A DNA stretch of 64,000 nt from Raja brachyura (Eukaryota): positions 7,316,001 to 7,380,000 of the forward strand of contig OY740812.1 in NCBI GenBank assembly GCA_963514005.1, in the 5' to 3' direction. The position numbers and the translations under genes are program-made. The notes under the pieces were generated by a model, which was not told where the DNA came from, ran no database searches, and saw only the letters and a program-made list of their open reading frames with translations. Positions within the stretch are counted from its first letter, which is position 1, and each line of letters opens with the position of its first letter. This document shows, in pieces, positions 9,640-64,000 of this stretch.

Positions 9640-10366
9640 CCCTGGATAGAAGGAATGGGTGACGTTTCGGGTCGAGACCCTTCTTCAGACTCGGGGGAGA
9701 GGGAGGCACAGAGATGTGGAAGGGTAAGGTGTGAAAAGGAGAGATCACAGGGGACGAAGCTCAAGGAAAATATAAAAATCGATCACTGTCAGCGAGGGGA
9801 AGGTGACAATGAGGTAAACAAAGATTAAAAAATTCAGGAGGACAGTCAGACTAGTCAGAGAACTAGTATGGGGGAGGGATGGAGACAGAGGGTAAGCAAG
9901 GGTTAGGTCATAAGGTCATAAGTGATAGGAGTAGAAATAGGCCATTTGGCCCATCAAGTCTACTCTGCCATCATGGCTGATCTATCTCTCCTTCCTAACC
10001 CCATTCTCCTGCCTTTTCCGCATAACCTCTGACACCCGTACTAACCAAGAATCTATCTATCTGTGCCTTATAAATATACATTGACTTGGCCTCTGCAGCC
10101 TTCTGTGTAGAATGTACTAACTCCATGCAGACAGCACCCACAGTCAGGATCAAACTCTGGTCCCTGGTGTTGTAAGGCAACATCTCTACTGTTAGATGTC
10201 TGTGCAACCATTAAATCTGGAGAACAGTTGAAACTTTCCAAATCCCTATCTCAGCCTTAAAAAGATCCGCTGACTTGGCCTCTACAGTCTTCTGTTATTT
10301 ACTGAAGTTAGAGAAGTCAATGTTCATACCGCTGGGTTGTAAGCTGCCCAAGCGAAATATGAGGTG
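9640..10366 (-). mobile_element. Neptune PLE 3' fragment (endonuclease C-terminus, 3' UTR and hammerhead-like core) split by a CR1 composite at 9906-10295
   Basis: 10298-10366 minus translates HLIFRLGSLQPSGMNIDFSNFSK, matching the end of the endonuclease at 63508-63855; UTR collinear with 54795-55140. Confidence 0.8.
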
Positions 10367-12686
10367 AAGCAGGTTTGATCTTTGAACGCTGCTTGAGGTG
10401 TCCATGGTAGCCGTCAACTATTTGGTACAGTGATGACTGATCACTCTGCATGTACTGAGTCTCGTTAAATTCATTTTACTGCCTACATTTCTGATCCAAG
10501 AATAAATGTGATACAGCTGATGCAATTTGGAGCCATATCTGGAGATTCTCAAGATAGACACAAAATTCTGGAGTAATTCAGCGCCACTGGAGAGAAGGAA
10601 TAGGTGACGTTTCGGGTTGGAACCCTTCTTCAGACTGGAGATTCTGAATTGTGTTATCTTAGTTGTGGGATAGAGAGTTAATTGTGAAGTTTGCAATTAT
10701 AGACAACCACAGCAAACAGGAAAATGTATCCCTATGCAGGAAAGGAGGTGCACGGAACTGCAGATGCTGGTTTGCCAAAAAAAACACAGAATGCTGGAGT
10801 ATCTCAGCAGGTCAGGCAGCATCTCTGGAGAAAGTGGACGGGTGACGTTTCGGATTGGGACCCTTTCTTAGACTGAAGGGTCTGGATCCTACTGACCCAA
10901 AACATCCCCAACCCATGTTCTCCAGTGATGCTGCGTGATCTACTGACTTACTCCAGCATTTTGTGTCTTTTTTCCGCAATGGAGGAAATCCTATTGGCCG
11001 AGTGAACTGTGTCAATCATTTTGCATTGAACAGATTGTCAACATAATGGAGATGGAATGGCTTTTTACTTCATAGTCTTGTAACTTTTGTCATGTATGTT
11101 ATGCAGCTGAAGATCAAAGGTGGTTGCTTCTTGGTCATCCTGCTATATTTAACCACATCTGTGGTTCCAACCAAAGCTGCTATGGCACTGGTAGTAGATC
11201 TGTCACTGACTGTCCATTTTTTCTATTGTTCAGCACTGAGACAAATAAGATAAGATTGAGATCAGGGCGTATATGACTTGGATGAATGATTAAGTATGCA
11301 GATGACACAAAATTTGATGGAGTCATCGAAAATGAGGAAGGTTGTTTAAAGGTTGTTTAAAGATACAGGTGGAAGATCGATCAGCCATAAATTTGGGTGG
11401 AGCTGTGGAAGATGGAATTTAATTTAGATACGTCTGAAATGATGCACTTTAGAAGGTCATATAGAGATAAATGACAAGGACCTGAGGAATGTTGATAAAC
11501 AGGATGCAAGCATCTCTGTCCTCATTTTTTTTTTCAACCTCTCAGTTCACCCCTGAGCCTCTTACACTTCAGGGAACGCATTTCCAGCCTATCCTGTGCA
11601 GGAAGGAACTGCAGATACTGGTTTAAACCGAACATAGACACAAAATGCTGGAGTAACTCAGCGGGACAGGCAGCATCTCTGGAGAGAAGGGATAGGCGAC
11701 GGGTCTCGAAACATCAGCCTTCCCTTCTCTCCAGAGATGCTGCCCCTCCCGCTGAGTTACACCAGCATCTTGTGTCCATCTCCAGCCTATCCTATCTCTC
11801 CTCATAACGCAAGTCACAGCAACATCCTTGTGAATCTTATCTTCCCCACCTCTTTCATATTGTATGGCGACCCAAACTACACACAACATTCTCAGCAACA
11901 TCCTACACTGCCTTAACAGGAGGAGAGAGGCTAGCATGCATCTATGTCACAACTGAACAATATAAGAGCTTAGTATTTTGAAAATGAATAATTCCATAAA
12001 TCTATTAATTTAAGGTGTGTTAACTGATTTAATTCTTGTCTTTCACCATTAACATATTATGAATCTATTGCCCTCTCCTTCTCGTTGAGATAAATATTCC
12101 TTTCATATCTGCAAAGCACTGGTTACTCAGGAAATTTGCCAGGGCGTTACAGGGGTTGAGTAGTTATGTCTATTTCAATCTCCCCTTGTAATTGTTTCTT
12201 CCAGGGACCAAATATTTCCAGGCAGTCAGCCATCCGACAATAAAACGCTAAAAATAAAATCAACTGATTGCTGGAAGACTCTTCACCATGTTCTTCATGA
12301 ACCCTGATTAACTTAAAGGGATGTTCTCCAGGGGAGAGTGGCTTTGCCCGAGTATAGACAATAGACAATAGGTGCAGGAGTAGGCCATTCAGCCCTTTCA
12401 GCCGGCACCACCATTCAATGTGATCATGGCTGATAATTGCACTCCCGTCTCCGAGTCAGAAACTGAAGGGTTAACATCGCACTACACCCACTCCGTGGTT
12501 GGAGATCAGATTATGGCTTCCCAAATATTACGATGTCATCCAGGGGGAGACTTGGATCTGGATGGAAGCTGTATCACCTTGGTGGTAGCTATTCTATCTT
12601 CTAGGCAGAATATATGAAATTGGGCTCTAACATACTCTCCAGAGCTCTCAATATTAGTTTGTTGGCCAGTGGGGCTGCATGAATCT

Positions 12687-12945: not shown

Positions 12946-15105
12946 CATAGTTAGTTCTGCTAGGTAGTTAAAAGACATAGGGAGAGGTGCGTGGATAGGA
13001 CAGGTTTTGAGGGAGGTGGGGCTAGCGTAGATGGAGCATCTTGGTTGGCATGTACACATTGGGCCAAAGGACATGTTTCTGTGCTGTATGACTCTATGGT
13101 CCTGATGGTCCATAATTTAGATCTAGTGATGATCTAGGAGTAGCAATGATGTCTGACCTGGAGATGAACCTGTACTTCCCACATGCCTCATGTTTATGTC
13201 TTCCTCAGTCTCAATGGTGAGAGAAGCTGGAGCAGGAGCCTTTTTTGGTCAGTTGCTTTGCTGCAGAGACTACTGACTTGCCAGAAATCAAGGAATTATG
13301 ATATTTTGCCAAGTCAGAAGATTTTATGACTTGGAACGGAAGTTGGGTTTTTGAAGGTTTGTTTTGGAACTCTCTCTTATCATTTCTAACCTTCCACTGA
13401 AATAACGTCACGCTGTGGACTGGCCCCTTGTGCCGAGAGTTCTTCATGCCAGCGTGTGTCAGAGGAGGAGATCTGTAAAAGTCCAATAATCTGGGACTCC
13501 CTGGACTACGTGGACAGGTGGGGTTTGTGGACTATTGGAATTTACTCTTATTAATACCCCACGCACGTTTAAAGTTTTTTTTTTGCATGGTAGCTAGCAA
13601 TATCAAAAACTTTCCAGTTTAGAGGGAGTGCAGGAAACTGTGCCTCCATAACTGTAGAGGGGGCAGGGAAACACGATCTCTGTGAGTTTAGAGAGGGGCA
13701 GGGAAACAGCACCAAGTGCCAAACCATCAGGGTTTACTAGCATGGAGACACGAGGAGCTACAGATGATGGAATCCTGCGTAAAACACAAAGTGCAGGAAT
13801 AACAATGGGTCAGGCAGCATCTCTGGAGGACATGGTTAGGCGGTGTTTCAGGTCAGAGCCCTTCTTCAGATTGGCGAAGGGTCCCGACCCGAAACAACTC
13901 CTACCCACGTCCTCCAGCGATGCTGCCTGACCGGTTACTCCAGCAGTTTGTGTTCTACACATGATTTACTAACAGCTGGAGAGTGAATGATTTAGAGTTT
14001 TATTCTAGTTTGTTGGTAATGTAGCAATTAGCAGGGCAAGTTACCAAGGTGTACTGAGCTGCTAGAGTGTATTTACGATGATCTCACCTGCCTTGGAGTA
14101 TTTTAGTAAGGCAGAGCTTCCAGTTCCACGTAGCATCTTAAGGGCGTGCTACAGGGATGTCATGGTACATTCTGCACGTATGCTGTGAGGTTGTAAGCAT
14201 ACCGTATGCATCTGACAATAAATGTAATTTGAACTTGAACTTGTTATGTGAGGGCCCGCTGGAGCAGCAAAAGCAGAATCAGTTTATATGCACCATTTCA
14301 TGAGAGGTAATTTGAGATATGATATCTTCTTGGTAGATTGCCTCGTTTGAATCAGCATTTATTGGTGCAGCAATTATTGCCTCATAGCTCCAACGAACCA
14401 GGGTCAATTCTGACTTTGGATGTTGTGATGCACAAGGTTCCATAAATTATGCCATTGTCATTTCTACACAGTAATGACATGGGCCACTATCTGATGCTTC
14501 CTGTCTATAATCTGGAAACTGGAGGACCTCAATGAGTCAGGCAGCATTGTGGAGGAAATGGACATTCCTGGTTAGGACACTTGGAGTTGTTGAGAGAAAT
14601 CTGGAAAAAAGAGTTAGATGGATCACTTTCAGAGCTTTGCCCCACCGCATCTCACTTTTCCGACTTTGTTAACCCCACCAGTCTGGGGAAGTGACCTGAT
14701 CCGAAAGGACATCTGTCCATTCCCTCCACAGATGCTGCGTGACCCGCTGAGTTCCTCCAGCCTTTTGTGTTTTCCTCAAGATTCCAGCATCTGCACTTCC
14801 TCTTGTATTGATAATCTGGAAACACAACAGCACACCTCCCTAGGCAGAGGCAGGGGGGTGTATCATCCATCAGGCAGGGCGAAACCACTGTGTAGGAAGG
14901 AACCACAGATGGTGGTTAAAACGGTTCGGGTCACGATCCTTCGTTTCTCCAGAGATGCTGCCTGTCCCACTGAGTTCCTCCAGCATTTTGTGTCCATCCA
15001 GGGCTATACCATCATTTGCCTGTTGATTTAGTGTTGGCCCTTTGCAATGGAATTCCCATAATCTAGCTCTTTATCTTTCCAGACCCGTTCCGCATGTTCG
15101 TCTAA

Positions 15106-15447
15106 TGGGCCTGTCCCACTTACGCAACTTGCTCGGTGACTGCCGGCACCCGTCATAGGTGGTTGCAGGTCGCCGAAAATTTACGACATGTTGAAAATCC
15201 AGCGGCAACCAGAACAAAGTACGACTCTTTGGGCGACTACTCACGACCATACAGGCTTCACCCCGTGACATGTCGTCAGGGTGTCGCCTGTTTGGTCGTG
15301 AGTAAATCCCCTCAGTCGCCCAAGGAGTCGTAGCGTCTTTCTGATCGCCGCTGGATTTTCAACATGTTGAACATTTTCGGCGACCTGCAATGACCTATGA
15401 CGGGTGCCGGCAGTCACCGAGCAAGTTGCGTAAGTGGGACAGGCCCA
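15106..15447. mobile_element. PIF/Harbinger-type MITE, almost entirely self-complementary
   Basis: About 55-bp perfect TIR (TGGGCCTGTCCCACTTACGCAACTTGCTCGG...) extending imperfectly inward; TAA on the left flank, right TSD not preserved. Confidence 0.8.
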
Positions 15448-21332: not shown

Positions 21333-21551
21333 AATAGACACAAAATGCTGGAGTAATTCAGCGGGACAGGCAGCATCTCTGGAGAGAAGGAATGGGTGAC
21401 GTTTCTGGTCGAGACCCTTCTTCAGTCCGGGTCTGAAGAAGGGTCTCAACCCATTCCTTCTCTCTAGAGACGCTGCCTGTCCCACTGAGTTACTCCAGAT
21501 TTTTGTGCCTATCTTCTGTTTAAACCAGCATCTGCAGTTCCTTCCTGCACA
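21333..21551. mobile_element. Inverted dimer of Neptune subfamily-A units
   Basis: Two opposed arms meeting at CTTCAG-TCCGGGT-CTGAAG; flanking repeat GAC(T/C)CTCAGAAG. Confidence 0.8.
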
Positions 21552-23106: not shown

Positions 23107-25539
23107 CACTTGCTCCACACATCGCCATTAAACTTACCCCCTCTCGCCTAATATCTATGCCCTCTAGTGTTGGGCGTTTCCACATTGGGAAAAACGGGTC
23201 AGTCTGAAGAAGGGTCTCGACCCGAAACATCACACATTCCTTCCCCCCAGAGATGCTGCCTGTCCCGCTGAGTTACTCCAGCATTGTGTGTCTATCTTTT
23301 ATGGGAAGGAACTGCAGGTGCTGGTTTACACCGAAGATAGTTCTGACTGTCGACCCTGTTGTGGTTAGAGAGAGGAAATTAGGTTGCATAAAAGAGTGAA
23401 TTAGCGGTGGCATTAGCGGCTTTGACATTTTTCTATTTGGATGGATGTTTTATATCTTGCGTGCGTGTGCTGTTGGCAGCTTGGGAACGTACTGTTATGT
23501 ACTGGTTGAACAGGACTGACAACCCAGAAACCTTCCAAGGGTTAATCAGTCGTTGAATTGCTGTGAGCTCCACACCTGCGATTCCAGTCTCACAGTCCAT
23601 GGCAGACGATCAGATTTACCATCAGGTGCCACGGGACCACCTTCCACGGGCAACTGTGCATGGCATGGGCAGTAAATCCAGAAAATATTTGAAGACTTGT
23701 GCAAAGGAGGAGGAATTTTCCAGGTCAATATCTCTAAAACCGCATTGACAGTCTGTGCTTGGATATTTGGGTAAGTAGAGTTAAGATCAAAGGTAGACAA
23801 AAATGCTGGCGAAACTCAGTGGGTGAGGCAGCAACTATGGAGCGAAGGAATGGGTGATGTTTCGGGTCGAGACCCTTCTTCAGACTGATGTGGGGTTGGG
23901 GGGGGGGTGACGGGAAGAGGAAAGGAAGAGGCGGAGAGCTGGGAAGGGGCTGGGAAGGATGGAGAAAGAAAGGGAAAGCAAGATCAAGATCAGAGATGAT
24001 CAAAGTCAGTGGTAATGTGTAGGAAGGAACTGGTCTAAATCGAAGATAGACACAAAAAGGTGAAGTAACTCGGCGGGTCAGGCAACATCTCTGGAGAAAA
24101 GGAATTGGTGGCATTTCGGGTCAGACAGTCTGAAGTAAGATGGGTCTCGGCCCAAAATGTCACCTATTGCTTATCTCCAGAGATGTTGCCTCACCCTCCG
24201 AGTTACTCCAGCTTTTTGTGTCAAATCTTCAAATTAAATAATAGAACAGGCTCAATGGGCTGAATGGCTGACCACTGTGTTTGTGTTGTCAAAACCACGT
24301 AGCAATGCTGCACCTATTTAGTGGAGAGGTTTTCTCGTCCAATTCTCTACCGTGTTTTTGTACAAGTTTTCTTGTGAAATGGTGCTTTTGACAAGCAACA
24401 GCTCCACATTTAAAACTTGCACAAAGGATTTTGGTTGGAATGGGTGTGATTCTAAAGCAGGTTCCCCCACTTTTCATTCCACTCTTCTGCAATGTGAAAG
24501 GGAGGTCCAAGGAGTTCCCCTCCATTTATCAGTTCGGTTGCAAGTGGCGGAAATCTAGTTCAGAATCTCACGCACCATTGCTGCAGAATGAAAAGTACAG
24601 TCAATTATCTTGTGTAGACTGAGTTTTGTTTGACGGTTGTTATGGTTTGTTTTTTTCCCCACCCAGTATGAATGGACTTTGTATAACTTTCTCCAAAAAC
24701 TCAGCATTAGGTTTCTCGTGTATTTATCTGAAGACTTGCATGAAACGCACCACTAACTCTTTTCCTGCCAACGCACTGTCAGAGCATACAAAAATATTTA
24801 TCGAACTTTAATCAAATCATTAGCAGGAATAATTGCGGTGGCAGGAAAGATACGGTCACGAAAGGTGGACGCTTTTTTTCTAATGAATGCCCATTCCGCC
24901 CTTACTTAACACACGCCTGATGTTCGCTTAGTATCAAAGGTCATGGGGAGAAGGCAGGAGAATGGGGTTGAGGGGGAAAAGATCAGTCGTGATAGAATGG
25001 CGGAGTAAACTCGTTGGGCTGAATGTCCTAATTCTGCCCCTAGAAGTTATGAACTTATGAACCAATGTGGTAACTTTCCGGGGCATCGACATGTATCTCT
25101 TCAAGGCTACTGCAGCAATATCTTCCACAAAGAGCTGAGGGCAATGGACGTGCCGAGACCGATCATGGGCAATGGAGGGGACTGGGACACAAAATGCTGG
25201 AGTAACTCAGCGGGACAGGCAGGAGAGAAGGAATGGGTGACGTTTCAGGTCGAGATTCTTCTTCAGGAGGGGATCGGGAGCCGCTCCTGTAGAACAAACA
25301 CGCGGTAATCCGGACTTTATGAAAGGGTGCCAAATATGGCAGAACTGGCATTATATGCAAAATGCATTTCGCTGTGTAATTTAATTGCATAAGTGACGAT
25401 AAATATATATTGAGCCATTGGGAATACCAGACCCTACAGGTTCCCCTCTGAGTTGCATATGGTCCTGAATTGGAAAAATGTTCCAGCGTTGATCTAAATC
25501 CAGGTACAGTTGGAGCTTTTTTTCTTTGGAACTGGTAGA

Positions 25540-25944: not shown

Positions 25945-26418
25945 TAATAGACAATAAACAATAGGTGCAGGAGTAGGCCATTCGGCCCTTCGTGCCGGCA
26001 CCGCCATTCAATGTGATCATGGCTGATCATCCCCAATCAGTACCCCGTTCCTGCTTTCTCCCCGTATTCCCTGACTCCACTATCTTTAAGAGCCCTATCT
26101 AGCTCTCTCTTGAAAGTGTCCAGAGAACCTCTGCGGGGTAGGCCATTTAGGACTACGGTGAGGAAGAACCTTTTCAGTCAGAGAGTTGTGAATCTGTGGG
26201 ATTCTCTGCCACAGAAGGCAGTGGAGACAAATTCACTGGATGTATTCAAGAGAGAGTTAGATATAGCTCTTAGGGCTAACGGAATCAAGTGATATGGGGA
26301 AAAAGCAGGAACAGGGTACTGATTCTAGATGATCAGCCATGATCATATTGAATGGCGGTGCTGGCTCAAAGGGCCGAATGGCCTACCTCCTGCACCTATT
26401 GTCTATATTTCTATGTTT
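25945..26418. mobile_element. Two CR1 3' ends abutting in opposite orientation
   Basis: Minus-strand copy to about 26130, plus-strand copy from about 26131, both with intact 3' tails. Confidence 0.8.
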
Positions 26419-29632: not shown

Positions 29633-31212
29633 AAAATGTGGCAGGTTAAAACAAAATGTGGATAGAAGGAGTCAGGCCCAGTTAGTCTGATAGATTTTCC
29701 CTGTTGAGGGAGTAGCTATTGCTGACAAGAAATATGTTAAAATTCAATGGTTGCTATCATTAAGCTCACCACCATCTGCATCCTGGGAGTCAACATTGAC
29801 CAGAAACACAACTGAAAAGCCACATAAATACCGTGATGCAAGAACGGTTCAGAGATGCACCGCAATTACTTGTCCAGGCCACTCCAACAGCAATTCCCAG
29901 TCCCATGACTTCTATTATTCTATTAAGAAGGCCAAAGGGTTTGGGTTCATGGGAAAGTTCCCCTCTTTGTCATCCACCATGTAGATTTGGAATTCTACCA
30001 CTGGTCTGTCATATGACGAAACCAAACTCCTGGGGCTCCTGGGCGGTGTGGGACTGCTTCATTAGAAAGACTGTAGTGGTTCAAGGTAGGAGTTTTGTTT
30101 AGAGTTACTGCCTTGACACAGGCCCTGTGGCCCACCGAGTTCATGCCCGCTCACATAAGTCCTGTTATCTAACTTTATAATCCACTCCCTACATACCAGA
30201 GATAGACACAAATTCCTGGAGTAACTCAGCAGGACAGACAGCATCTCTGGAGAGAAGAAAAATGCGTAACGTTTTGGGTTGAGACCCTTCTTCAGGCTGA
30301 GAGTCAAGGGAGGGGGAGACTAGAGATATGGAAGGTCAAGGTGTCGAAAAGAATAGATCAAAGCAGACAACGCTAAGAAAATGTAGAATGGTTCATCCTG
30401 CTCGGTTGTAAGTTCTGTGCCTATCTTCGGTGTAAACCAGCATCTGCAGTTCCTTCCCACACATCAAGGCCATTTCACAGAAGCCTATTAACCTACAAAT
30501 CCCCACGTCTTTGAGAAGTGGGAGGGAATCCATGGGGTCACAGGGCGCGTGTGCAAACTCCACACCCAGGTCTCTGGCGCTGCGAGGCAGCAGCTCTACC
30601 AGCTGTACCACCGTGCCGTCCCACAGGTCACCACCTTTCATCTTTTCACAGGCAATTGCAGATGGGTAACAAATGCTGTTCTTGGTGGCAGTGCCCATGA
30701 ACAAAGATGGGAATAAAAACAGGACACTTGGGCTAAGTTCTAGTTTGCCTAGCTTTTACTGTGATCTTTTCGGATAGGAGCAGAATTAGGCCATTCGGCC
30801 CATCGAGTCTATTCCGTCATTCAGTCGTGACTTGATCACCCACTCCTAACCCCATTTTCCTGCCTTCTCCCCATAACCTCTGACACTCGTACGAATCAAG
30901 ACACTGAACTGTAGCTTCGATGGAAATGAAATGTCCAGCTACATGCCCTGTTGGTGACCTCTGTCAACACTCTCTCCCACTGGCAGATTAAAGTACGTGA
31001 GCGAGAGGGCTTTCAGTGACAGTCTGCATACACAGCTTCCTCTGTAATGCCACAACTGAAATGTAGCAGCCATTCTGTCAGAGTTAGAGATCATAAACGG
31101 CCCACCAATGCTGCCCCATTCTTAATTACATTCTCTGACACGCTGTTTCCCCCCCCCCCCCCCCCCCCCGATTCCAAACCCCTTCCCTCGGCCCTGCTCC
31201 AATGCTTAGTTT

Positions 31213-32203: not shown

Positions 32204-33508
32204 AAAGTTCTAACGACATGACAACTTCCTTTCACTGGTGAAACTATGACTAAGGTTTAAGGGGTTGAGGAAAATGAAGAGTAACTGTTGAGAAAGTTAA
32301 TGTCTTTTTGTCTTGTTTCACGTTTAACTTTTACTCTGGGGAACTGAGTACACACATGTAGACTGGCAGTCCACCGTCAAGGGTAGACACAACATGCTGG
32401 AGTCAAAACGTCCCCTAGCCTGACCCGCTGAGTTACTCCAGCACTTGTGTCTATCTATCTTTGGTACAAACCAGCGTCAACAGTTCGTCTCTGTCACCAC
32501 TGTTAAGGGTCTTGTTTTTCAGACGAGAGGCTAAAATGCTGCCCTATCTGATCTCTCGGGCAGATTTAAGTAACAAATTTCCCCATGCACCCTTTTGAAG
32601 AAGAACCCTGTGCCTTGGATAATATTTGTCATTCTTTACCACTAAAAACAGATTCTTTAGTCATTGTGACTGTTTTTTGTGGGGACCTGCTGTGTTCAGA
32701 TTGGCTGCTGGTACTGCACTTAAAACTATAACATTATTTCAGCTGTAATGCCCAATGGAGTATTTTGGGAAGGATATGAAAGTTGGTATATTAATGCAGA
32801 TATTTACGGGTTGGAACCAGAAAGAACCATGCAAGAAGTACCCAGCACTTTGGGTGGTTTCAATGTGCGGGGATCGCTGGTCGGCGCGGACTCAATGGGC
32901 TGAAGGGTCTGTTTCCGCGCCAGACTAAACTAAGATACCGTACCTACACACGTCCACCTATCCCCTGCTCCCTGTCAAAGCAGGCAAGGCAAACATACTG
33001 CACATTGGACAGGAGCAGACAAACTACTCCAACTAATCATTCCTGCCTTTGTTTATACTTTCAAGTGCTGAATCCTATTCTTAAATTAACCATTTTCCAA
33101 CACACCCTACTGGAGTTACCTAGTAACAGAACTACTTCTGCTCAAAGGCTGAACTCCAGAATGAGCTCATGTCTAATGTTCCCAGCTAGCTCCGCGGTGC
33201 CTCCAAATACTGACCATGTCACAGTCACGTCCAACGTCACGGCTGTGTTGATTAACGGAGGGGGTGGGGGAGAGGGGGTTTATTTGCAGTCAGCCACTTG
33301 ATTAGTCAAATATGCACAGACCCACTGAAAGTGACACTCAGACTGGAGCAGCATGCAATCTGACTTTCACCAACCCATCAAACAACAGAGTCCCACCCTG
33401 CCGGGTGTCATGGTGTTACATGAAACATAGAACAGTACAACGCAGAAAGGCAACAGGCCATTCGGCCCACAACGCCTGTGCTGACCGCGGAACCAAATTA
33501 AACTTAGT

Positions 33509-39385: not shown

Positions 39386-39753
39386 GGCAGAGTAGGCTCG
39401 ATGGGCCGAACGGCCTAATTCTACTCCCATAGCTTGTGAACTGGTGAACTCCAAATTCTTTTTCTTCATTAGCCTGGGGTCAAAACACAAGCAGATTTTC
39501 TTCGCTGCCGCTTTTTACAAGTCGTCAGGTTAATCATTCATTGCAAGAACCAGTTACGAGTGGTGATTATCACTCAACTAAATCAGTTGGAAGTAAGTCA
39601 AACCGTAGTAATGAGGTTGGTCAGGAGAAGTGAAAAAGAGCCTTTGGCAAAACTAAGGGAGTAAGTCTTATTTTAAAATGCGGAATCTTATTAAAGAAAT
39701 ATCAATCAGAGCTAAACGCTGGCACAGGTGAGGTGCTGTGCAGGTAAAAAGGA

Positions 39754-39961
39754 TGTTCACGAAGGAACTGCAGATGCTGGAAAAGCGAAGGTAGACAAAA
39801 ATGCTGGAGAAACTCAGCGGGTGCGGCAGCATCTATGAAACGAAGGAAATAGGCAACGTTTCGGCCCGAAACCCTGAAGGAAATAGGCAACGTTGCCTAT
39901 TTCCTTCGCTCCATAGATGCTGCCGCACCCGCTGAGTTTCTCCAGCATTTTTGTCTACCTT
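39754..39961. mobile_element. Inverted dimer of Neptune subfamily-C units
   Basis: Opposed arms; flanking repeat AGGTAAA(A/G)AGGA at 39742-39753 and 39962-39973. Confidence 0.8.
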
Positions 39962-42158: not shown

Positions 42159-44362
42159 TTGCCTCAACCACCTTAAAACAATGTCCTCTGATTTGTGATT
42201 CCCCTGCTCTGGGTAAAAGACTGCACATTTACTCTGTCTATTCCTCCTATGGTGTTTTAAACCTCTATAAGAACACCCCTGTTCACCCTATCTATTCCCC
42301 ACATCATTTATACACCTCTTGATTTGGAAAGGCCAAGAGTTAAGACAGTGGCCAGATCTGTGAGAACACCACACCTCGATCAATGGTGTTTTATCATTAA
42401 TGTTTTATTATTATTAATGTTTAGTGTTTTCTGAGTCATTCGTAACTGTCACTGTATGTCATGTTGTTACTTGTGGGCGGAGCACCAAGGCAAATTCCTT
42501 GTATGTGAATACTTGGCCAATAAACGTACTTACTTACTCATCTTTTCTTCCCCAAACTCCCAATCCCCTCCCCTCCCTCCCCCTACCCTCTCCTCCCCAC
42601 CCCCGCCCCTCCTCCACTCCCTACCCATTCCCCACCCCCTCCCCACCCCTCCCCTCCCCCACACCTGGATGTCACCTCTCTGGGGCCACTGCCTGACCCA
42701 CCAAGTTACTCCAGCATTTTATGTCCGCCATCAAGAAACTAATCTCTTCTGTCCCTTTACGTACACAAGTTAACTATTCTGTTGGCTCCGATGATTCTTC
42801 CTTCACTTATCCAGTTGTGGTCGTGCAGCTGTTGCTGCCACAGTAACTGGAATGCCTCGCTGCTTAATCCAGCCACCAGCTGCTCGAAGGACCAGGTCTA
42901 AAATCAGAGCACAGGGTGTGTCACCAGCTTCACTTACACTTGGTGACTGAACATCACAACTGAATGGAAATCAACCTGCATTCCGTCCTTGCTCCCTTAC
43001 CCCTTCCCACTACCTCCCTGTGCCCTGACGGCAGGTTTAATTAAGGGCTGCTGCGCTTCCCGTTAGATGGATCGAACGACACATACTCCAGGGCCATGTA
43101 AGGATTTGCTCCCCCCTCCCCCCACACACACAGAAGTTCACTCAAACAACCAGCTTGTAGGTGATAAATAGTTTGCAAAACAGGGAAAAGGGCACTGCCA
43201 GTGAAGCTGATAGGGTGATGCTTTCACCCAAAGGAGGTAGTGGTGGGTGTAGGACATACAATGCAGATGACTAGGATTCTTGCCCATCCGCGTCACAACA
43301 GAGACCCAACTGGTTGCAGCATTTAAACCGCAGCACTGACGTTTGTTTAGAGCCATTAACTGTCTAAAATGGAAAGTGATCTTGGTGACTGTGGAAACTG
43401 GATCCAGGGGGTGTGTATGTGTTGGGGAGGGAGAGGAGGAGAGGGGGGGGAGGGGGGGGGGGGTGTTGGGTTGGTGTCTGGTGATGCTTTTGACCAGTGG
43501 CATCAGAATGCCATTCTCTTCATTCTCTTTGTTTTGGACGCCTCACTCTTTGGACAAGAAGGGAAACTAGGAACCACCGCTGCTCAAGGAGAGAGTAAAA
43601 GGTTGGTTCAAAGAAAAGGGGGTTTACAAAAAAGAGTTTGAATTACAGATTAGTTTATTGTCACGTGTACCGAGGTACAGTGAAAAGCTTTTGTCGCGTG
43701 CTATTCGGTCAGTGGAAAGACATTACATGATTACAATCGAGCCATTTACAGTGTATAGGTACATGATAAGGGAATAACGTTTAGTGCAAGGTAAAGCCAG
43801 CAGAGTTCGATCAAGGACAGTCCGAGGGTCACCAACGAGGTAGATAGTAGTTCAGGGCTGCTCTCTGGTTGTGAGAGATGGTGAGTAGAAACTTAGTCAT
43901 TCCAAGTTCAATGTTGGCGGGTGGACGCAGCCAAGATCAGAGGTATGTGTAGGACGGAACTGCAGATGCTGTTTTAAACCGAAGATAGACACAAAATGCT
44001 GGAGTAACCAAGCGGGTCAGGCAGCATCTCTGGAGAGAAGAAGTAGGTGACGTTTCGTGTTGGAACCCTTGTACAGACTGAAGTCAGAGGTATGTGTCTG
44101 AAGGAACTGCAGGTGCTGGTTTAGACACAAAATGCTGGAGTAACTCAGCGGGACAGGCAGCATCTCAACCCGAAACGTCACCAATTCCTCTCCAGAGGTA
44201 TGTCAGATTAAGGGGCGAGATATGGATATTATGTTATGGATATAGATATTACCGGATAGAGAGGTGTGGAGAGAATCCAACAAGGAACAAAAATCTTTTT
44301 TTAATTCCTTTGTAGCTTCTAGACTGCTTTGGATCAGGTGGTTTGGGTAATACTGTTCCCAT

Positions 44363-49703: not shown

Positions 49704-49758
49704 ATTGTGAAGAAATAGCATCGCCAAAAAGGAGGCAAGCGCGGGCGGCAGAGATACA

Positions 49759-50616
49759 ATGGGAGAATGGAGTTTCCTGAGCGAATGGCTGGACTCGATC
49801 AAGGAGCACGCCCCCATGCTGGGGCGTGTGTGGCTGCTTCTCATGATGATATTCCGCATTCTTGTCCTGGCCACCGTGGGGAGCGACATCTTCGAAGACG
49901 AGCAGGAAGAGTTTGCCTGCAACACACTCCAGCCCGGTTGCAAGCAGGTGTGCTACAACAACGCCTTCCCCATCTCGCCCTACAGGTTCTGGGTCTTCCA
50001 CATAGTATTTCTCTCAGTGCCGTCCTTGCTGTTTGTCGTCTATGCCGTCCACCTGTCCTCAAAGGACGAGGAGACACAAGAGAAGATTGGCATCATCAAA
50101 AGGAAGGAACCGGCCGGCAATGGCGTGCCAAGGATACAACAGTGTTACATTGTCCATGTCATCCTGCGGCTTCTGGCTGAAGTTGGCCTGGTTGTTTCCC
50201 AGTATTTGATTTTTGGCTTCACGATCGAGCCGCAGTTTATCTGCACGGGTTTCCCCTGCCCGCATATCGTGGACTGTTTTGTCTCCCGCCCAATGGAGAA
50301 GACCGTGTTTTTGATGTTTTATTTTGTGGTCAGCATCCTCTCCGCCCTGATCAGCTTCGTGGAGTTGGTGCACATAGTTAGGAAGATATGCAGCCGACAG
50401 CAACTAAAGACCTTTGAGCAGCAGAACCGGTCAAACAGTGACTACGAGAAGGGTCGAGAGCCACACTCGGTCCAGTTACTGGACAAGATGGTCATGGTGA
50501 ACCTTAGCTCCAACCACTCTGACATGGATTCTACTCACAAGACCAAGTCTTTGGGCAGTAGTAACAGTCGAAGATCTTCTCTATCGAGTGCAAAGAAACC
50601 TCCCCTCAACATCTAA
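49759..50616 (+). CDS. GJD3: Gap junction delta-3 protein (connexin 31.9 orthologue), 285 aa
   Basis: MGEW start in strong Kozak context (ACAATGG), 4 TM segments, E1 C-x6-C-x3-C and E2 C-x4-C-x5-C. GJD3-like strings FRILVLATVG, FEDEQEEF and YRFWVFHI. Lies downstream of TOP2A on the same strand, as in human. Confidence 0.9.
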   Translation: MGEWSFLSEWLDSIKEHAPMLGRVWLLLMMIFRILVLATVGSDIFEDEQEEFACNTLQPGCKQVCYNNAFPISPYRFWVFHIVFLSVPSLLFVVYAVHLSSKDEETQEKIGIIKRKEPAGNGVPRIQQCYIVHVILRLLAEVGLVVSQYLIFGFTIEPQFICTGFPCPHIVDCFVSRPMEKTVFLMFYFVVSILSALISFVELVHIVRKICSRQQLKTFEQQNRSNSDYEKGREPHSVQLLDKMVMVNLSSNHSDMDSTHKTKSLGSSNSRRSSLSSAKKPPLNI

Positions 50617-52929
50617 AAACTGCAACAGAACTGTGGTGCGGCAATGACAAGGAACTGCAAACATTTCAGGTGCAAAAAGTCACTTGTTCAAATCCTTATG
50701 CATATTGAGTGCAAAACAGAATCACTTCCAATTACATTGAGCTTGTATATTTGGTTAATTGCTTACCCGTTAATTGATTGCTCGTTAACAAACAATGGAG
50801 GTTGGTAAGATGTTCTGGAAGCTGAATTGGGGATTAGAGGCAACGGTGACACAGCTGGTGAAGATGCCCCTTCAAGGCTCCTACGCCCTCTGTTCGTGTG
50901 GAGTTTGCACGTTCTCCCTGTGCCCGCAATGGGGTTTCTCCTCCAGGTGCCCGGGTTTCCTCCCACATGCCGAAGACGTGCGTGCGGGTTGATGGGCTAG
51001 TTGGCCACGGTAAATCGGCCGCTGGTGTGTGGCCGAGTGGTGCAACCTGGGAAGGGTTTGTGACAGTAAATCAGTGATCAGTGCGGGAATAGTGCGCTCG
51101 TTGGTTGGCGTGGCCCCAGAGGGCCAAAGGGCTTGTTTCTATGGGCCTTGCTGATGATGAGAGGTGTGGGTTCAGTGGGCTGCCGGGGTCCGTGACAGAG
51201 CAGAAAGTATCTTGAGGCCAAGGTAGAGGCCAAGTATCTGCCTGAAACAGCGGCCACAACCCGTTCAGTCCCTCATGGGAGTGGAAAGTGAGTTATTAAA
51301 CCATCTGGAAACGTTCCATTTTATTCATGTTGACCTTTTCCTTCTAATTGTCCTTCACTTCAGTTTAGTTTATTGTCACATGTACCGAGGTACAGTGAAA
51401 AGCTTCTGTTGCGTGCTACCCAGCCATAGGTGATTACAATCGAGCCGTTCACAGTGTACAGATACATGAGAGGGGAATAACGTTTAGCGCAAGGTAACGC
51501 CAGTAAATTCCGATCAAAGATAGTGCGAGGGTCCCCAATGAGGTAGAGAGTGGTTCAGGACTGCGGTCTGATTGTGGTAGGATGATTCAGTTGCCCAATA
51601 ACAGCTGGGAAGAAACTGCCCCTGAATCTGTTTGTTTATTTATTTGTTCAGATGAGGATCGCACTGTCAATGCTTATCCCCAATTACCCATGAGTCAGAG
51701 GACCAAGTTAAGAACCATAGTTAAGAATTGTTAACATCCAGTTTTGTTCCGGCCTTTTCTCACCTCCTGTCCCCCCCCCCCCCCCCCATATCTTTCAATA
51801 TGAAGATGGTTCCCACCCGAAACGTCACCTATTCCCTTTCTCCAGAGATGCTGCCTGACCCGCTGAGTCACTCCAGCATTTTGTGTCCATCTTGGTTAAG
51901 AATCGACCACATTAGATTGGACAATTTGCTAATCAGGGATGTGCTTTGGTACGGCAATACTCTACTGGAGTGTTTGTGAGGAAAGAATTTCACTGCGGGC
52001 TTGCACTTTGCACACGTGACAATAAAAAGCATCATCGACACAATGGTTTGTTTGACTAGAGATACAAGGAATTACAGGTGCTGGAATCTTGAGCCGGAAC
52101 ACAAAGCGCTGGAGTTACGCAGCAGGTCAGGCAGCATCTGCGGAAGGGGTGACTGTATGGGCGGCGTTTCAGGTCGTAAGCCATCTTCAGACTGATGGAC
52201 AATGTTTTGGAACGGGACCCGACACCAGTCTGAAGAAGACCATGAAATATCACCTCGTCAGTGGAGGCCAAATCACTGGAAGGATTTAAGAGAGAGTTAG
52301 ATAGAGCTCTAGGGGCTAGTGGAATCAAGGGATATGGGGAGAAGGCAGGCACGGGTTATTGATTGGGGACGATCAGCCATGATCGCAATGAATGGCGGTG
52401 CTGGCTCGAAGGGCCGAATGGCCTCCTCCTGCTATTTTCTATGCTTCTATCCCCTCCACAAATGCTGCCTGACCCACTGAGTTGCTCCAGCACTTGTTGA
52501 CCAGGTATTTGGGACAGGAACTAGGAAGGATCAACCGCATGTATAGAGGAGACAATTTAAAGCAATCATTGCTTTGGCGACCAGGGCAATCCGCTGCAAT
52601 AACTTAAAAAAATCTATATCTATAAGACTGGCTGGTACCAGTCTTGCACTAGAATGACATTACTGTATAAGAATTACAGTCAGTATTTGTTGTGGACTTT
52701 CTTACTACTGTATATGGAGCTTTTGAATTTACACTCTTTGATTAAAATGAGTTTTTAAATTGAAGTGGCGGTGCAGCATTTTTGAACTTCAAGTTGTGTC
52801 ACAAAGACTTTGAAGGGCCACACATACACATTTCCCTCACATTATGCGTTAGTTCACTCCTGTGCTTCGGGGGCAAGTGTTGAGGGGAACTCAGGGAGAA
52901 AGAACTACACGAGGTTAAATGGTTACTCA

Positions 52930-54794: not shown

Positions 54795-55332
54795 TAGACA
54801 CAAAATGCTGGAGTAACTCAGCGAGACAGGCAGCATCTCTGGAGAGAAGGAATGGGTGATGTTTTGGGTCGAGATTCTTCTTCAGTCTCTGAGAGTCAGG
54901 GGAGAGGGAGATAGAGGTGAAGGTGTGAAAATGGGGGAAAAGGGAATTGAGATCAAGGAAAATATATAATGGATCACTGTCAGCTGGGAGAAGGTGACAA
55001 GAAAGCAAACAGAGATAAAATGTAGTCGGAGACAGTCAGACTAGTTGGAGAACTGGGAAGGGAGAGGAATGGAGAGAGAGGGAAAGCAAGGGTTACTTGA
55101 AGTTAGAGAACTCAATGTTCACACTGCTGGGGTGTAAGCATTCCCTTTGCCCTATTTTCACACCATCACACTTATATCCCCCCCACCCCCCTAATGTCAG
55201 TCTAAAGAAGGGCCTCGATCCAAAACGTCACCCGTTCCTTCTCTCCAGAGATGCAGCCTGTCCCGCTGAGTTACGACAGCGTTTTGTGTCTATCTTTGGT
55301 TTAAACGGGCATCTGCAGTTCCTTCCTGCCCA
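54795..55332. mobile_element. Neptune PLE: long minus-strand 3' fragment followed by an inverted plus-strand unit
   Basis: About 55092-55138 minus reads LHPSSVNIEFSNFK*; second arm 55140-55332 in opposite orientation. Confidence 0.8.
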
Positions 55333-56893
55333 AACTACTTGCTCCTATTTTAGAAGAAAGCCATTTTATAATCTGGGGAAGAATGCGATGACTCAGCAAT
55401 CTCTGAGGAATTCGCAGGAAGTTACTGCAAACGTCCAAATATGGAAAGGACTTGCATGTGAAATAGGGAAAGACTTAGTTGTTCCCTTTAAAGTTCAATG
55501 CATCAGCCTTGCTTCAGGTTAGCGAAAGACCATCATCAATTTCAGGATTAAGCACTGCGCAACTGGAAAATCTCCACTTTGGACTCAGATGTTGACAGAG
55601 TGATGTAATGTTCTCCCAGGAAACGGACTATTGTTCTGTGATATCGATCTGCCCTTCATTTATCCCGCTCTGTGACAAGGAACCAGTTCAATCAAGAGCT
55701 CGGTCCCTTGTATCTGGATTTCAGCATTTTCCATTGTGTGAAGGGATATTGAAACAGTATTTCTCCCTGACATTTCAGCTCACATCCCCTGTCTCTTCCT
55801 CGGCCACTCGACTGCCCTGGAATATAAAAAAGCAAAACAGAACCGCAGATGTAAATCTGAATTAAAAATTAAAAAGTTTCTTGAATTGAAACATGTACTC
55901 TGTCCCTCCTTAAATGCTGCCTAACTTGTTCAACTTTAACTTGTTTCAACTTTGCCGGTGTGAACTTGGTGGGCCGAAGAGCCTGTTTCTCTACAAAACA
56001 AACAAAAAGTCAGTTTGAGATCTTCTTTCCCTTAGGCAACTCAGTCAGTGTGATGAACACGCCCAGTGTTCAAACCTAGCTTTTGGGCTCGGTCACAAGT
56101 GTTGCCCTCAGGATCTGCTTCCTGCAAATTGGCTGTGAAAATATAGAACCGGTGTGAATGGGTGATCAATGGTTGGCATGGGCTCAGCGGGCCGAGGGGC
56201 CTGTTTCAATGTTGTATCTCTAAACTAAACTTTTCACGTCCAATCCCAGGAAACTGACAGGAACTGCGACACTGAATGAGATCTTTATTATTGCCCATAA
56301 GACATAGAAGCAGAATTAAGTCGTTCTGCTCATCGAGTCTGCTCTGCCATTCAATCATGTCTGATCTATCTTTCCCCCTCAACTCCATTCTCCTGTCTTC
56401 TCCCCGTAACCTTTGACATCCTTACTATTCGAGAACCTATCAATCTCCACTTTAAAAATACCGAATGACTTGGCCTCCACTGCCGTCTGTGGCAATGAAT
56501 TCCACAGATTCGCCACCCTCTGGCTGAAGAAATTCCTCCTCATCTCCATTCTAAAGGCACGTCCTTTTATTCTGAAACTGTATCCATAATCACAATAACT
56601 GTTTCAACGTCCCAACATAACTTTGAGTGTGTAATGGTGATGCATATTTTAATGGTTTTATACATGTTATATGTATTTTTATACAGAGAGTAATGTTTAT
56701 ATGAATTCCTTACACTAAAGTTGTCTGCCTTTAAAATTAAACTGATATTTGATCAATTATATTTCTTTCATTGAGGTTAACGACCTGACACTTGTTTAAA
56801 GTATTTAAACAAATTGAATATAGTTCCAATATTACCACAAATTCATTATTAAAAGATAGATAATTTAAAGGAAACAATATTAGAACTAATTAG

Positions 56894-57115
56894 TTAAAGA
56901 AGGAACTGCAGATGCTGGAGAATCGAGAATTACACAAAAAGCTGGAGAAACTCAGCGGGTGCAGCAGCATCTAAGGAGCGAAGGAGATAGGCGACGTTTC
57001 GGGTCGAGACCCTTCTTCAGTCTGAAGAAGGGTCTTGACCCGAAACGTCGCCTATCTCCTTCGCTCCTTAGATGCTGCTGTACCCGCTGAGTTTCTCCAG
57101 CTTTTTGTGTAACCC
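56894..57115. mobile_element. Near-perfect palindromic dimer of Neptune subfamily-B units, 14-bp TSD
   Basis: Axis at 57021 (CTTCAG-T-CTGAAG); TTAGAACTAATTAG at 56880-56893 and 57116-57129. Confidence 0.9.
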
Positions 57116-57230
57116 TTAGAACTAATTAGGATCATCTGCCATTAGCATTTCCACTTCCACCAGTTCTACCTTCCCACTCTTGAGACCACCAAGTCTCCAC
57201 CCGGGGCCGAGAGTTATCGACGATCTACTG

Positions 57231-57446
57231 GTTAAGAGCTTAAGAAGGAACTGCAGATGCTGGAAAATTGAAGGTAGACAAAAATGCTGGAGAAACTCAG
57301 CGGGCGAGGCAGCATCTATGGAGTGAAGGAAATAGGCAACGTTTCGGGTCGAGAAGAAGGGTCTCGACCCGAAACGTCGCCTATTTCCTTCGCTCCATAG
57401 ATGCTGCCTCGCCCGCTGAGTTTCTCCAGCAATCTTGTCTACCAAT
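57231..57446. mobile_element. Palindromic dimer of Neptune subfamily-C units
   Basis: Opposed arms; GATCTACTG at 57222-57230 and 57447-57455. Confidence 0.85.
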
Positions 57447-57805
57447 GATCTACTGATGATGATTATTTACTGTGTAGGAAGGAACTGCAGATGCTGGTTT
57501 AAACCGAAGATAGACACAAAAAGCTGGAGCAGCTCAGCGTCTGAAGAAGTGTCTCGGCCCAAAACGTCACCCAGTCCATCTCTCCAGATGCTGCCTGTCC
57601 CGCTGAGTTACTCCAGCATTTTGTGTCTATCTTGTTTATTTACTGTCAGCTGTCAGTCAGGGCAGGACTCTTGTTTCAAGCAGCTGCAACTTCAGCTGAC
57701 AAGACCCAAATCTCTGGAGTTCCCTCAAAAGCCTCTAAAGGAGGGAAGTCTTCCTTTACGAGTTGCCTTGAAACATACGTCAAGTGCTTGGTCTGCTGTA
57801 CTTCC

Positions 57806-60051: not shown

Positions 60052-60900
60052 TTGGGGATGAGTCGGAGTACAGAAGAGAGATCGAGCGACTGTCCATATG
60101 GTGCCAACACAACAACCTGGCCCTCAACACCAGCAAAACCAATGAACTGATTGTGGACTTTGGAAGGAGTAGGATGGGGACCCACAGTCTCTTTATATCA
60201 ACAGGTCTATGGTTGAAAGGGTCAAGAGCTTCAAATTCTTGGGCGTGCACATCTCTGAAGATCTCTCCTGGTCCGAGAACACTGATGCAATTATCAAGAA
60301 AGCTCACTAGTGCCTCTACTTCCTGAGAAGATTACGGAGAGTCGGTTTGTCAAGGAGGACTCTCTCTAACTTCTACAGGTGCACAGTAGAGAGCTTGCTG
60401 ACCGGTTGCATCGTGGCTTGGTTCAGCAACTTGAGCACCCTGGAGAGGAAAAGACTACAAAAAGTAGTAAACACTGCCCAGTCCATCATCGGCTCTGACC
60501 TTCCTTCCATCGAGGGGATTTACCGCAGTCGCTGCCTCAAAACAGCTGGCAGTATCATCAAGGACCCACACCATCCTGGCCACACACTCATCTCCCTGCT
60601 ACCTTCAGGTAGAAGGTACAGGAGCTTGAAGACTGCAACGACCAGGTTCAGGAATAGCTACTTCCCCACAGCCATCAGACTATTAAACCTGGCTCGGACA
60701 AAACTAATAACCCATTATCTGTTATTTGCACTTTATCAGTATATTTATTCATGTGCGTATATATTTATATAATAGTATATGGACACACTGATCTGTTTTG
60801 TAGTCAATGCCTACTATGTTCTGTTGTGCTGAAACAAAGCAAGAATTTCATTGCCCTATCAGGGACACATGAAAATTAACATACTTGAACTTGAATCTTG
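60052..60900 (+). mobile_element. Rex1/Babar LINE 3' fragment (RT C-terminus, frameshifted) nested in a CR1 3' UTR
   Basis: DESEYRREIERLSIWCQHNNLALNTSKTNELIVDF; FYRCTVESLLTGCIVAWF; LLPSGRRYRSLKTATTRFRNSYFP; (CTTGAA)n tail; CR1 resumes after 60900. Confidence 0.9.
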
Positions 60901-62502: not shown

Positions 62503-63151
62503 CTCTTTAACTTGCCACTGAGGCAGTCGGTCTTGAAAAGCAACAAGTCCTTACCTGTGCACAAACCTTTAAACTGCTCTGGTGGCTCCTCGCTGCTGCT
62601 AAGACGATCAGGCCTGAAAAACCCGGACAATTTTAACCCATCAAGTGAGGGTTAAAATAATACTGACTAAAATTTGAAAGATGACAGTCAAAGATGAAAC
62701 AACATATTCCTGTAGAAACAAGAGACTGCAGATGCTGGTTTACAAAATAGGACACAAAATATTAACTCAGTATATCAGGCAGCATCAGGTAGACTGAGGA
62801 AGGGTCTCGACCTGAACCGTTACCTATCCATGTTCTCTGGAGAAGCTGCCTGACCTGCTGAGTTACCGCAGCACTGTGATATATATTTCTGTACGTATAT
62901 CACCTGATTCCAGACACAAACCAATCCTTGAATCACTACTGCTCCCTACTGCAAGAGAAAAGGGATTACAATTTTCATCGTGGAAAACAGTGAATGGTAG
63001 TGGCACCCAAACGATATTATGGAACTTAAAACAGCGTGTCTTTCTACACAAGAGACCGCAGAGGCTGGTGCTGAAGCCAAAAAGCAAACTGCTGCAGAAA
63101 CTCAGCGGGTGAAACAGCATTCCAGTTCAGTAAAAACAAATAACTGCAAAT

Positions 63152-63857
63152 TGTTAAAGAAGGAACTGCAGATGCTGGAGAATCGAGGGTTACACAAAAA
63201 GCTGGAGAAACTCAGCGTGTGCAGCAGCATCTAAGGAGCGAAGGAGATAGGCGACGTTTCGGGTCGAGACCCTTCTTCAGACTGGTCAGGGATCAGGGAA
63301 GCGAGAGATATAAACAGTGATGTGGAGAGATAAGGAACAATGAGTGAAAGATATGCAAAAAAGTATTGGTGATAAAGGAAGCAGGCCATTGTAAGCTGTT
63401 TGTGGTGTGAAAATGAGAAGCTAGTGCGACTGGGGGGGGGAGGGGAGATGGAGAAGGAATGTCAGGGCCAGAGGGCTGAGGGAGAGGTGGGGGGGAGGCA
63501 GTCTGGGTTAACAGAATTGAGAAAATTCAATGTTTAAGCCCAGAGGATGCAGACTCCCCAAGCGGAATATGAGGTGCTGTTCCTCCAACTTGCGGTGTTG
63601 ATCACTCTGGCCGTGGAGGAGGCCCAGGACCGAGAGGTCGGATACGCAGTGGGAGGGGGAGTTGAAGTGCTGAGCCACCGGGAGGTCGGGTTGGTTATTG
63701 CGGACCGAGCGGAGGTGTTCGGCGAAACGATCGCCCAGCCTCCGCTTGGTCTCACCGATGTAGATCAGCTGGCATCTGGAGCAACGGATGCAGTAGATGA
63801 GGTTGGAGGAGGTGCAGGTGAACCTCTGTCGGACTTGGAATGACTGCTGGGGTCCAA
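63152..63857 (-). mobile_element. 5'-truncated Neptune-clade Penelope-like element (GIY-YIG endonuclease, 3' UTR, subfamily-B end)
   Basis: Contiguous endonuclease frame, pyrimidine-rich UTR and hammerhead-like core at 63253-63280. Confidence 0.9.
63508..63855 (-). CDS. GIY-YIG endonuclease domain of the PLE, 115 uninterrupted codons, no start codon (5'-truncated)
   Basis: GPQQSFQVRQRFTCTSSNLIYCIRCSRCQLIYIGETKRRLGDRFAEH...VAQHF...RKLEEQHLIFRLGSLHPLGLNIEFSQFC*; LIY-CxxC-YIG with Arg, His and Glu of the PLE endonuclease. Confidence 0.85.
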   Translation of the reverse strand, partial: GPQQSFQVRQRFTCTSSNLIYCIRCSRCQLIYIGETKRRLGDRFAEHLRSVRNNQPDLPVAQHFNSPSHCVSDLSVLGLLHGQSDQHRKLEEQHLIFRLGSLHPLGLNIEFSQFC

Positions 63858-64000
63858 CTGCAAATGTTGGTTTATACCAAAGTCAGATGTCAGTGGAGGT
63901 CAGGATCAAACCGCTGGTGCTGTGAGGCAGCAGCTCTACCCGCTGCACCACTGCAAAGAGGAAGGCAATCTTTCGGATAATAATCCTACAACAGGACGTC

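Follow-up and report, generated by a model that had tools for sequence, protein, structure and literature searches.

What kind of event leaves a near-perfect hairpin of transposon sequence in a skate genome? The question is raised by an insert of 222 bases at 56894-57115 of the 64-kb window, the whole stretch of DNA analysed here and the one to which every family tally below refers. An earlier note on this DNA had described the insert as a near-perfect inverted repeat with a 1-nt spacer inside a single 14-bp target-site duplication, and this description was borne out. The arms (56930-57020 and 57022-57112) are 91 nt each and 98% complementary, and 90 of 94 columns are identical when they are aligned in full. 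Folded as single-stranded DNA, the hairpin reaches -121 kcal/mol (z = -25.8), which none of 200 shuffled sequences equalled. The left end carries 33 nt that have no counterpart on the right. With the C of CTGAAG taken as element position +1, the locus is made up as follows.

56880-56893, + strand: left target-site duplication, 14 bp, with an exact copy at 57116-57129.
56894-56926, - strand: tail of 33 nt, on one arm only, delimited by alignment of the arms and of single copies.
56894-57020, - strand: tailed arm, element +1 to +127, of the youngest subfamily and 97.6% identical to copies 20025, 39256 and 63154.
57018-57024: junction CAG-T-CTG, whose centre T at 57021 is the base of the element sense strand along the tail-less arm.
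57022-57049, + strand: minimal hammerhead-like core (CUGAAGA, bulged A, helix II, GAAAC-GUC), a pattern match to the descriptor available from PMC4209133; its mirror copy lies at 56993-57020 on the - strand.
57022-57115, + strand: tail-less arm, +1 to +94, from the arm alignment.
57116-57129, + strand: right target-site duplication, 14 bp, an exact match to 56880-56893.

The focal pair differs from the other young copies at four positions, all C-to-T on the element sense strand; two are adjacent in the left arm and two lie in the right.

The nature of the repeat is indicated by a longer copy of the same young subfamily.

63152-63855, - strand: longer 5'-truncated young-subfamily copy with the end of the endonuclease, a pyrimidine-rich 3' region, the hammerhead-like core and the tail.
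63508-63882, - strand: reading frame encoding a GIY-YIG endonuclease fragment, P0001 (Pfam PF01541, E = 8.9e-5, above the curated cut-off).

This copy is 97.6% identical to the focal arm over 127 nt and has its own 10-bp duplication (63142-63151 and 63856-63865). P0001, of which about nine first residues derive from the flank, has a GIY-YIG endonuclease with a pair of cysteines between GIY and YIG. Proteins of the skates Leucoraja and Rhinoraja head the list of its 82 longer homologues, which makes a skate the probable host. The full-length homologues include a reverse transcriptase domain; in P0053 and P0064 (about 890 aa) and in P0038 this domain (PF00078) lies upstream of the part matched by the 5'-truncated window copy. 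Because the young copy runs into a GIY-YIG frame with reverse transcriptase-bearing homologues, the repeat arms are evidently 5'-truncated 3' ends (pLTR and tail) of an endonuclease-bearing Penelope-like element (PLE).

The family had previously been named as Neptune. The PLE part of that name is upheld by the PF01541 match, the homologues and the continuous frame. According to the available text of PMC8557442, a CX2-5CxxC linker before the endonuclease marks the Neptune and Nematis clades. A CX4CxxC linker is present in the relatives P0002 and P0005 (75% and 64% identity), and the window copy is cut just downstream of it. The skate family resembles both clades in its C-terminal GIY-YIG domain, in the two cysteines between GIY and YIG and in the linker of its relatives, and it differs from them in that its duplicated targets are not (TA)n microsatellites. 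The Neptune part of the name stands as probable, the linker being seen in close relatives and common to Nematis. The family is very abundant: the long copy was matched by about 96,000-130,000 contigs in each of three public runs and by 8,000 in a fourth, figures that are not copy numbers, and the differences of these contigs from the long copy are mostly G>A on the + strand. The partial-tandem pLTR organisation of PLEs is absent from the window; one joint in public run X6, from 63630 to 63159, fits a truncated copy followed by the next copy's tail. The long young copy has itself landed within the tail of an older family member (63142-63885), and a second small fragment of the endonuclease C-terminus is found at 10301-10366 on the - strand (tblastn E = 3e-6).

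In shape and size the hairpin resembles a MITE (a non-autonomous DNA transposon), and these two traits are what such a reading has to offer. Its ends, however, are not inverted repeats, since 33 nt on the left have no partner; duplications around pairs and single copies range from 7 to 15 bp and are not of a constant short length; and the sequence runs without a break into a PLE endonuclease frame. We regard a MITE origin as extremely unlikely. The earlier note had likewise taken the hairpins for MITE-looking products of retrotransposition and had named constant short duplications and excision footprints as observations that would speak against this; neither constant short duplications nor inverted repeats at both termini were found. 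Two long inverted repeats unrelated to the family, at 15106-15447 (109 nt at 94%) and 25973-26386 (155 nt at 83%), are possibly true MITEs.

Two properties of the element bear on how it is copied, namely the hammerhead-like core and the position of its 3' ends. Positions +1 to +28 fit a minimal type I hammerhead descriptor (core, bulged base, helix II and palindromic GAAAC-GUC), the pattern has 12 matches in the window, and self-cleavage is predicted after 57049. A search against Rfam at the gathering score gave no match; helix II is 85.5% paired with no covariation, and helix I has only about 2 bp. The 3' ends of the family fall into two groups: short ends cluster at about +89 to +96, long ends at about +127 to +130. 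Single copies with duplications of their own are found with the long end (20023, 15 bp; 43949, 14 bp) and with the short end (10555, 11 bp; 25183, 8 bp). The short end appears to behave as a start site, because the tail-less ends of the pairs coincide to the same few bases with the 3' ends of single tail-less copies, two of which (10555 and 25183) have their own duplications. The tail that separates the two ends is 33 nt in the focal pair and up to 36 in young single copies. An 8-bp stem between body and tail is 95% paired and conserved in 16 copies with no compensatory change, and is suggestive at most. Pairing of the element's 5' start with the end of the tail, as in the fold of the young copy (z only -1.2), was also considered; at 74.8% paired and with no covariation in 16 copies, it is unsupported as a general feature.

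The focal hairpin is one of many. BLAST with one focal arm returned 55 matches in the window and a profile search 61. Among the 47 strong matches, nine head-to-head neighbours lie within 60 nt of each other, where 5000 random placements gave 0.53 on average and never more than 5; of all ten adjacent copies at this distance, nine are head-to-head, one is tandem and none is tail-to-tail. Curation by eye raised the number of head-to-head pairs to 17, comprising the ten of the earlier note and those at 14889, 24017, 30200, 32383, 44096, 52062 and 54796. Besides the focal pair, they are as follows.

54796-55331: long-armed pair; upstream extension of 257 nt in the tail-less arm, which enters the endonuclease stop codon, and of 59 nt in the tailed arm; 12-bp duplication with 1 mismatch.
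11596-11780: pair, tailed then tail-less; 13-bp exact duplication.
21333-21551: pair, tail-less then tailed; duplication 8 bp exact, 12 with 1 mismatch.
39754-39961 (39749): pair, complex junction with an extra antisense block; duplication 7 bp exact, 12 with 1 mismatch.
57231-57446: pair, arms mutual nearest neighbours in the window; 9-bp duplication.
57474-57634: pair, tailed arm stopping at +63; 11-bp duplication.
10748-10974: decayed pair; 10-bp duplication with 1 mismatch.
13746-13962 (13745): decayed pair; duplication 7 bp exact, 10 with 1 mismatch.
62712-62884: decayed pair, tailed arm stopping at +49; 11-bp duplication with 1 mismatch.
44096-44196: additional pair, second arm stopping early at about +50; 11-bp duplication.
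14889-14999: additional pair, left side mostly tail, right side a tail-less arm; 13-bp duplication with 2 mismatches.
32383-32497: additional pair; 14-bp duplication with 2 mismatches.
24017-24229: additional pair; no duplication found on search.
30200-30462: additional pair; no duplication found on search.
52062-52500: probable pair, right arm broken by another repeat; weak 8-bp duplication.
5058-5250 (5060): decayed pair, tail state ambiguous; no duplication found on search.

A flanking duplication of 9-14 bp with 0-2 mismatches accompanies 13 of the 17 pairs, the others being 5060, 24017, 30200 and 52062; the score threshold used was reached by 3.75% of 400 random position pairs. Of the nine further loci for which the same layout with its own duplication had been claimed, eight exceed the chance level and 5060 does not. 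In line with the claim that one arm usually has the full 3' end while the other stops about 35 nt short, 16 of the 17 pairs, as judged by eye, combine a tailed with a tail-less arm, 5060 being the ambiguous exception, and no pair has two tails (p = 5e-4 for 15 of 16 at p = 0.5).

Several other arrangements of the family were noted in the window. At 43937-44203, a tailed single copy and the small pair beside it are set apart by three copies of one 11-12 bp target, the outcome either of successive insertions at the same site or of a single multi-cycle event. At 23200-23340, the sequence after a tail-less copy is an inverted piece made up of tail alone, which stands tail-to-tail with the copy and stops at the short start site, and at 2867-2975 a tail end is joined directly to a short end. 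Copies are interrupted by another repeat family at 9400-9637 and 52256-52440.

Whether such a pair is one insertion or two can be judged from its duplication and its arms. The arms of a pair resemble each other more than they resemble those of other pairs, with an identity of 0.82 compared with 0.74 for mismatched arms, a difference reached in none of 20000 shuffles; the test covers 13 pairs and omits 44097, whose arms do not overlap, and 14889, 32383 and 52062, in which a single arm could be aligned. That the pairs are single insertion events, as originally proposed, is well supported by the sequences: one duplication of variable length lies outside the pair and none inside, the junction has no room for another, the arms are alike and of the same subfamily, and a tailed arm is matched with a tail-less one. 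A pair might instead arise if an independent second insertion struck the 5' end of an earlier one, in keeping with the habit of the family of inserting into its own copies (63152 lies within an old tail, and 44096 shares a target with its neighbour 43949). Such a history is very unlikely, however, given the one duplication round the pair, the 1-nt junction that leaves no room for a second, and the invariable head-to-head orientation with same-subfamily arms and strict pairing of tailed with tail-less.

A palindromic non-autonomous element, in which a hairpin master replicates as a unit by means of the PLE machinery, might be suspected from the density of the pairs (17 in 64 kb) and from the reuse of one axis region. 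We consider it highly improbable: the junctions of all 17 pairs differ, the pairs are distributed over several subfamilies, each of which also has single copies, and long-armed pairs grade into coding copies. We propose that the hairpin is a by-product of insertion and not a unit that replicates as a palindrome.

The axis itself had been read as a stereotyped fold at the ribozyme-like motif. This was not upheld, given that junctions vary between pairs and that single copies stop at the same place. The commonest axis lies 1-4 nt 5' of the hammerhead-like core. Many single copies identified by the profile search end at -1 to -4, and in the four public runs loose ends that lead into unlike sequence are most numerous at 63282-63284 (-2 to -4); in run X1 these three positions account for 463, 403 and 704 contigs, the set at 63284 including upstream sequence of other subfamilies. 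The common axis is the commonest 5' stop of the family and is common to single copies. In six of the 17 pairs, as judged by eye, neither arm ends more than about 6 nt from +1, and in four this holds for one arm; in five, both arms end inside the core region or beyond, and in two the axis is far upstream. A clean 1-nt spacer occurs at 56894 and, in decayed form, at 10748 only, and at 57474 and 62711 one arm is missing 50-60 nt.

Two functional readings of the axis were examined. It does not correspond to the ribozyme cleavage site, because the predicted cleavage is 28 nt further in and the core is intact in both arms. A splice acceptor was also considered, as a pyrimidine-rich stretch, CAG and the core follow one another here and, in the available part of PMC4209133, an intron of D. 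virilis ends at helix I. No CT..AC skip was present among the best 15 of 502 joints, in a check that treats run X15 as RNA by guesswork, and this reading is unsupported. The same 15 joints include no change of strand, which is uninformative either way since short contigs break at hairpins. In all four runs, joints lead from 63284 back 39 nt to 63246 and duplicate the hammerhead-like core, and run X15 has a head-to-tail joint from 63284 to 63156 with 36 nt between; both are possibly retrozyme-like tandem units of the PLE family.

For the joining of the arms, the earlier note had offered a stereotyped fold-back or twin priming. Twin priming fits the evidence better, and a stereotyped simple fold-back fits it poorly. 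With moderate confidence, we favour the view that the focal hairpin represents two head-to-head PLE 3' ends within one 14-bp duplication, made in one insertion by twin priming. The PLE protein would make a staggered cut at the target. One target 3' end would prime at the distal start site and so yield the tail, and the other would prime some 35 nt further in, at the proximal start site, and yield the tail-less arm. Both cDNAs would tend to stop just 5' of the hammerhead-like core, their 3' ends would pair by microhomology (in the focal pair, the CAG/CTG of a natural near-palindrome), and fill-in would complete the hairpin. At the focal locus, the tail-less arm would have been copied from RNA to -4, its last three bases pairing with the last three of the tailed cDNA. 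Failure of one cDNA would leave a single copy, and cDNAs that ran further would leave a long-armed pair such as that at 54795.

The main competing explanation is also a single insertion, in which a cDNA folds back and primes itself at a short palindrome and the asymmetry of the tails arises by early termination or endonuclease trimming. Self-priming has been put forward for PLE inverted junctions (PMC3846280) and the tail has been attributed to endonuclease-mediated resolution (PMC8557442), each in the portion of text available. In the window, natural near-palindromes are found at common turning points (CAG-N-CTG, and AACGTT at 39749), and tail-only or tail-then-jump pieces occur (14889, 23305, 2867, and public-run joints from 63178 to 63253-63257). 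Rare variants are common to both arms at 57231, 24020 and 13745, a pattern that is no less likely if one RNA was read twice or if gene conversion took place. With endonuclease trimming of one arm, fold-back predicts many of the products of twin priming.

Without trimming, fold-back can yield neither the centre base of the focal junction nor the extra 5' sequence of the tail-less arms. It fits poorly at 57021 because it predicts an A; a T is observed, as expected from an RNA-templated cDNA of the tail-less arm. The reference for this comparison is the sequence upstream of the 63154 copy, in which the element sense strand reads CAG-T-CTGAAG, so that the argument concerns a single base of a single locus, read against the one young copy that has upstream sequence; the pair at 10748 carries the opposite centre base. 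Simple fold-back fits poorly also because the tail-less arms of nine pairs hold 5' sequence that the tailed arms lack, so that neither arm contains all of the other; at 54796 the excess is about 200 nt, the largest of the nine, and includes the endonuclease stop. The tailed arm extends further in up to six pairs, two of which are tied or ambiguous, and the bias is not significant (9 vs 6, p = 0.61). Hairpin centres are prone to later deletion, which can also yield unequal arms. Fold-back further requires that the copying end at just the place where tail-less single copies start, and a 1-nt loop is not known to form. The pair at 39749, with a perfect palindromic turn (AACGTT) and an extra block, does look like fold-back with template switching. 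A mixed route is also possible: the second nick would supply a cDNA of tail alone, to be met by the proximal cDNA after its fold-back. For the pairs as a whole, fold-back is a possible account of which we remain doubtful.

Twin priming, the preferred reading, has precedents. In LINE-1 elements, both target strands can prime reverse transcription, which results in an inversion inside one duplication; the two LINE-1 cDNAs cover different parts of the RNA, whereas in the skate pairs the same part is covered twice, with the tail as the difference. As reported in the accessible text of PMC11167929, the PLE protein of the anole in vitro nicks each of the two strands, extends both, and begins synthesis at two neighbouring internal sites that are one tail length apart; it is a predicted dimer, and ribozyme cleavage is dispensable. 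Inverted copies are not a subject of that text. This support comes from a Poseidon-clade element (PAc of Anolis carolinensis) and not from the skate PLE family, which is of another clade and is known here from its sequence. Both elements have a hammerhead motif with two 3' ends downstream of it, spaced by about 35 nt, and both show a conserved body-tail pairing and insertion into their own repeat (PMC11167929). A more tentative suggestion, plausible in our view but held with reserve, is that a dimeric reverse transcriptase-endonuclease primes both nicks, one subunit per start site of one RNA, so that every inverted insertion receives exactly one tail.

The layout of the pairs is already known for PLEs and is seen here in miniature. 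It is not new because an inverted truncated copy, a one-sided tail and a single duplication have been described: an inverted pLTR with a tail of 30-40 nt and one target-site duplication makes up the published layout (PMC8557442, PMC3846280, as far as available). In Pen2a_Av / Pen2 of Adineta vaga, the copies are likewise head-to-head, inverted and 5'-truncated, with a 30-40 nt tail at one end and palindromes at the junction, and one 8-10 bp duplication surrounds the unit, as the single outer duplication does here (both from the same portions of PMC3846280 and PMC8557442). The skate units differ in that they have mostly shrunk to the last 95-130 nt, which makes them near-perfect hairpins, and in that there are 17 of them in 64 kb. 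Non-LTR retrozymes are also short non-coding derivatives of PLE pLTRs with a type I hammerhead motif, and they form head-to-tail tandem arrays, whereas the skate copies are head-to-head pairs or singles with their own duplications (bioRxiv 10.64898/2026.07.22.740005, in part). Head-to-tail hammerhead units, by which retrozymes are recognised, are not the arrangement of the adjacent copies in the window, nine of ten of which are head-to-head. Our literature search found nothing on such hairpins in skates or on twin priming in PLEs; it mostly excluded subscription papers, including the original papers on PLE structure, which may already say so. How the inverted layout forms is stated as open in the available text of PMC8557442 and PMC3846280.

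No host function of the hairpin is indicated, and the seeding of dsRNA and cruciform substrates suggested in the earlier note stands as a conjecture. An intact-looking connexin reading frame (49711-50616, + strand; Pfam PF00029, E = 3e-74) lies about 6 kb upstream of it, and a Pfam match to ALKBH8_N (E = 1e-4) is found at 60311-60400 on the + strand; this domain occurs in LINE 3' regions. Hairpins of this kind are liable to be mislabelled as MITEs or as microRNA-like stems and can break assemblies. The rule that a tailed arm is paired with a tail-less one (16 of 17), together with a tail-less arm that appears to be independently templated, ties the start sites seen in vitro to the inverted copy. 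Twin priming and fold-back can be tested against each other by counting pairs in an assembled skate genome. If the dimer reading is true, these miniature pairs record a missing step of the Penelope cycle, and the skate genome would hold thousands of such events, whose centre bases and arm extents could settle the mechanism.
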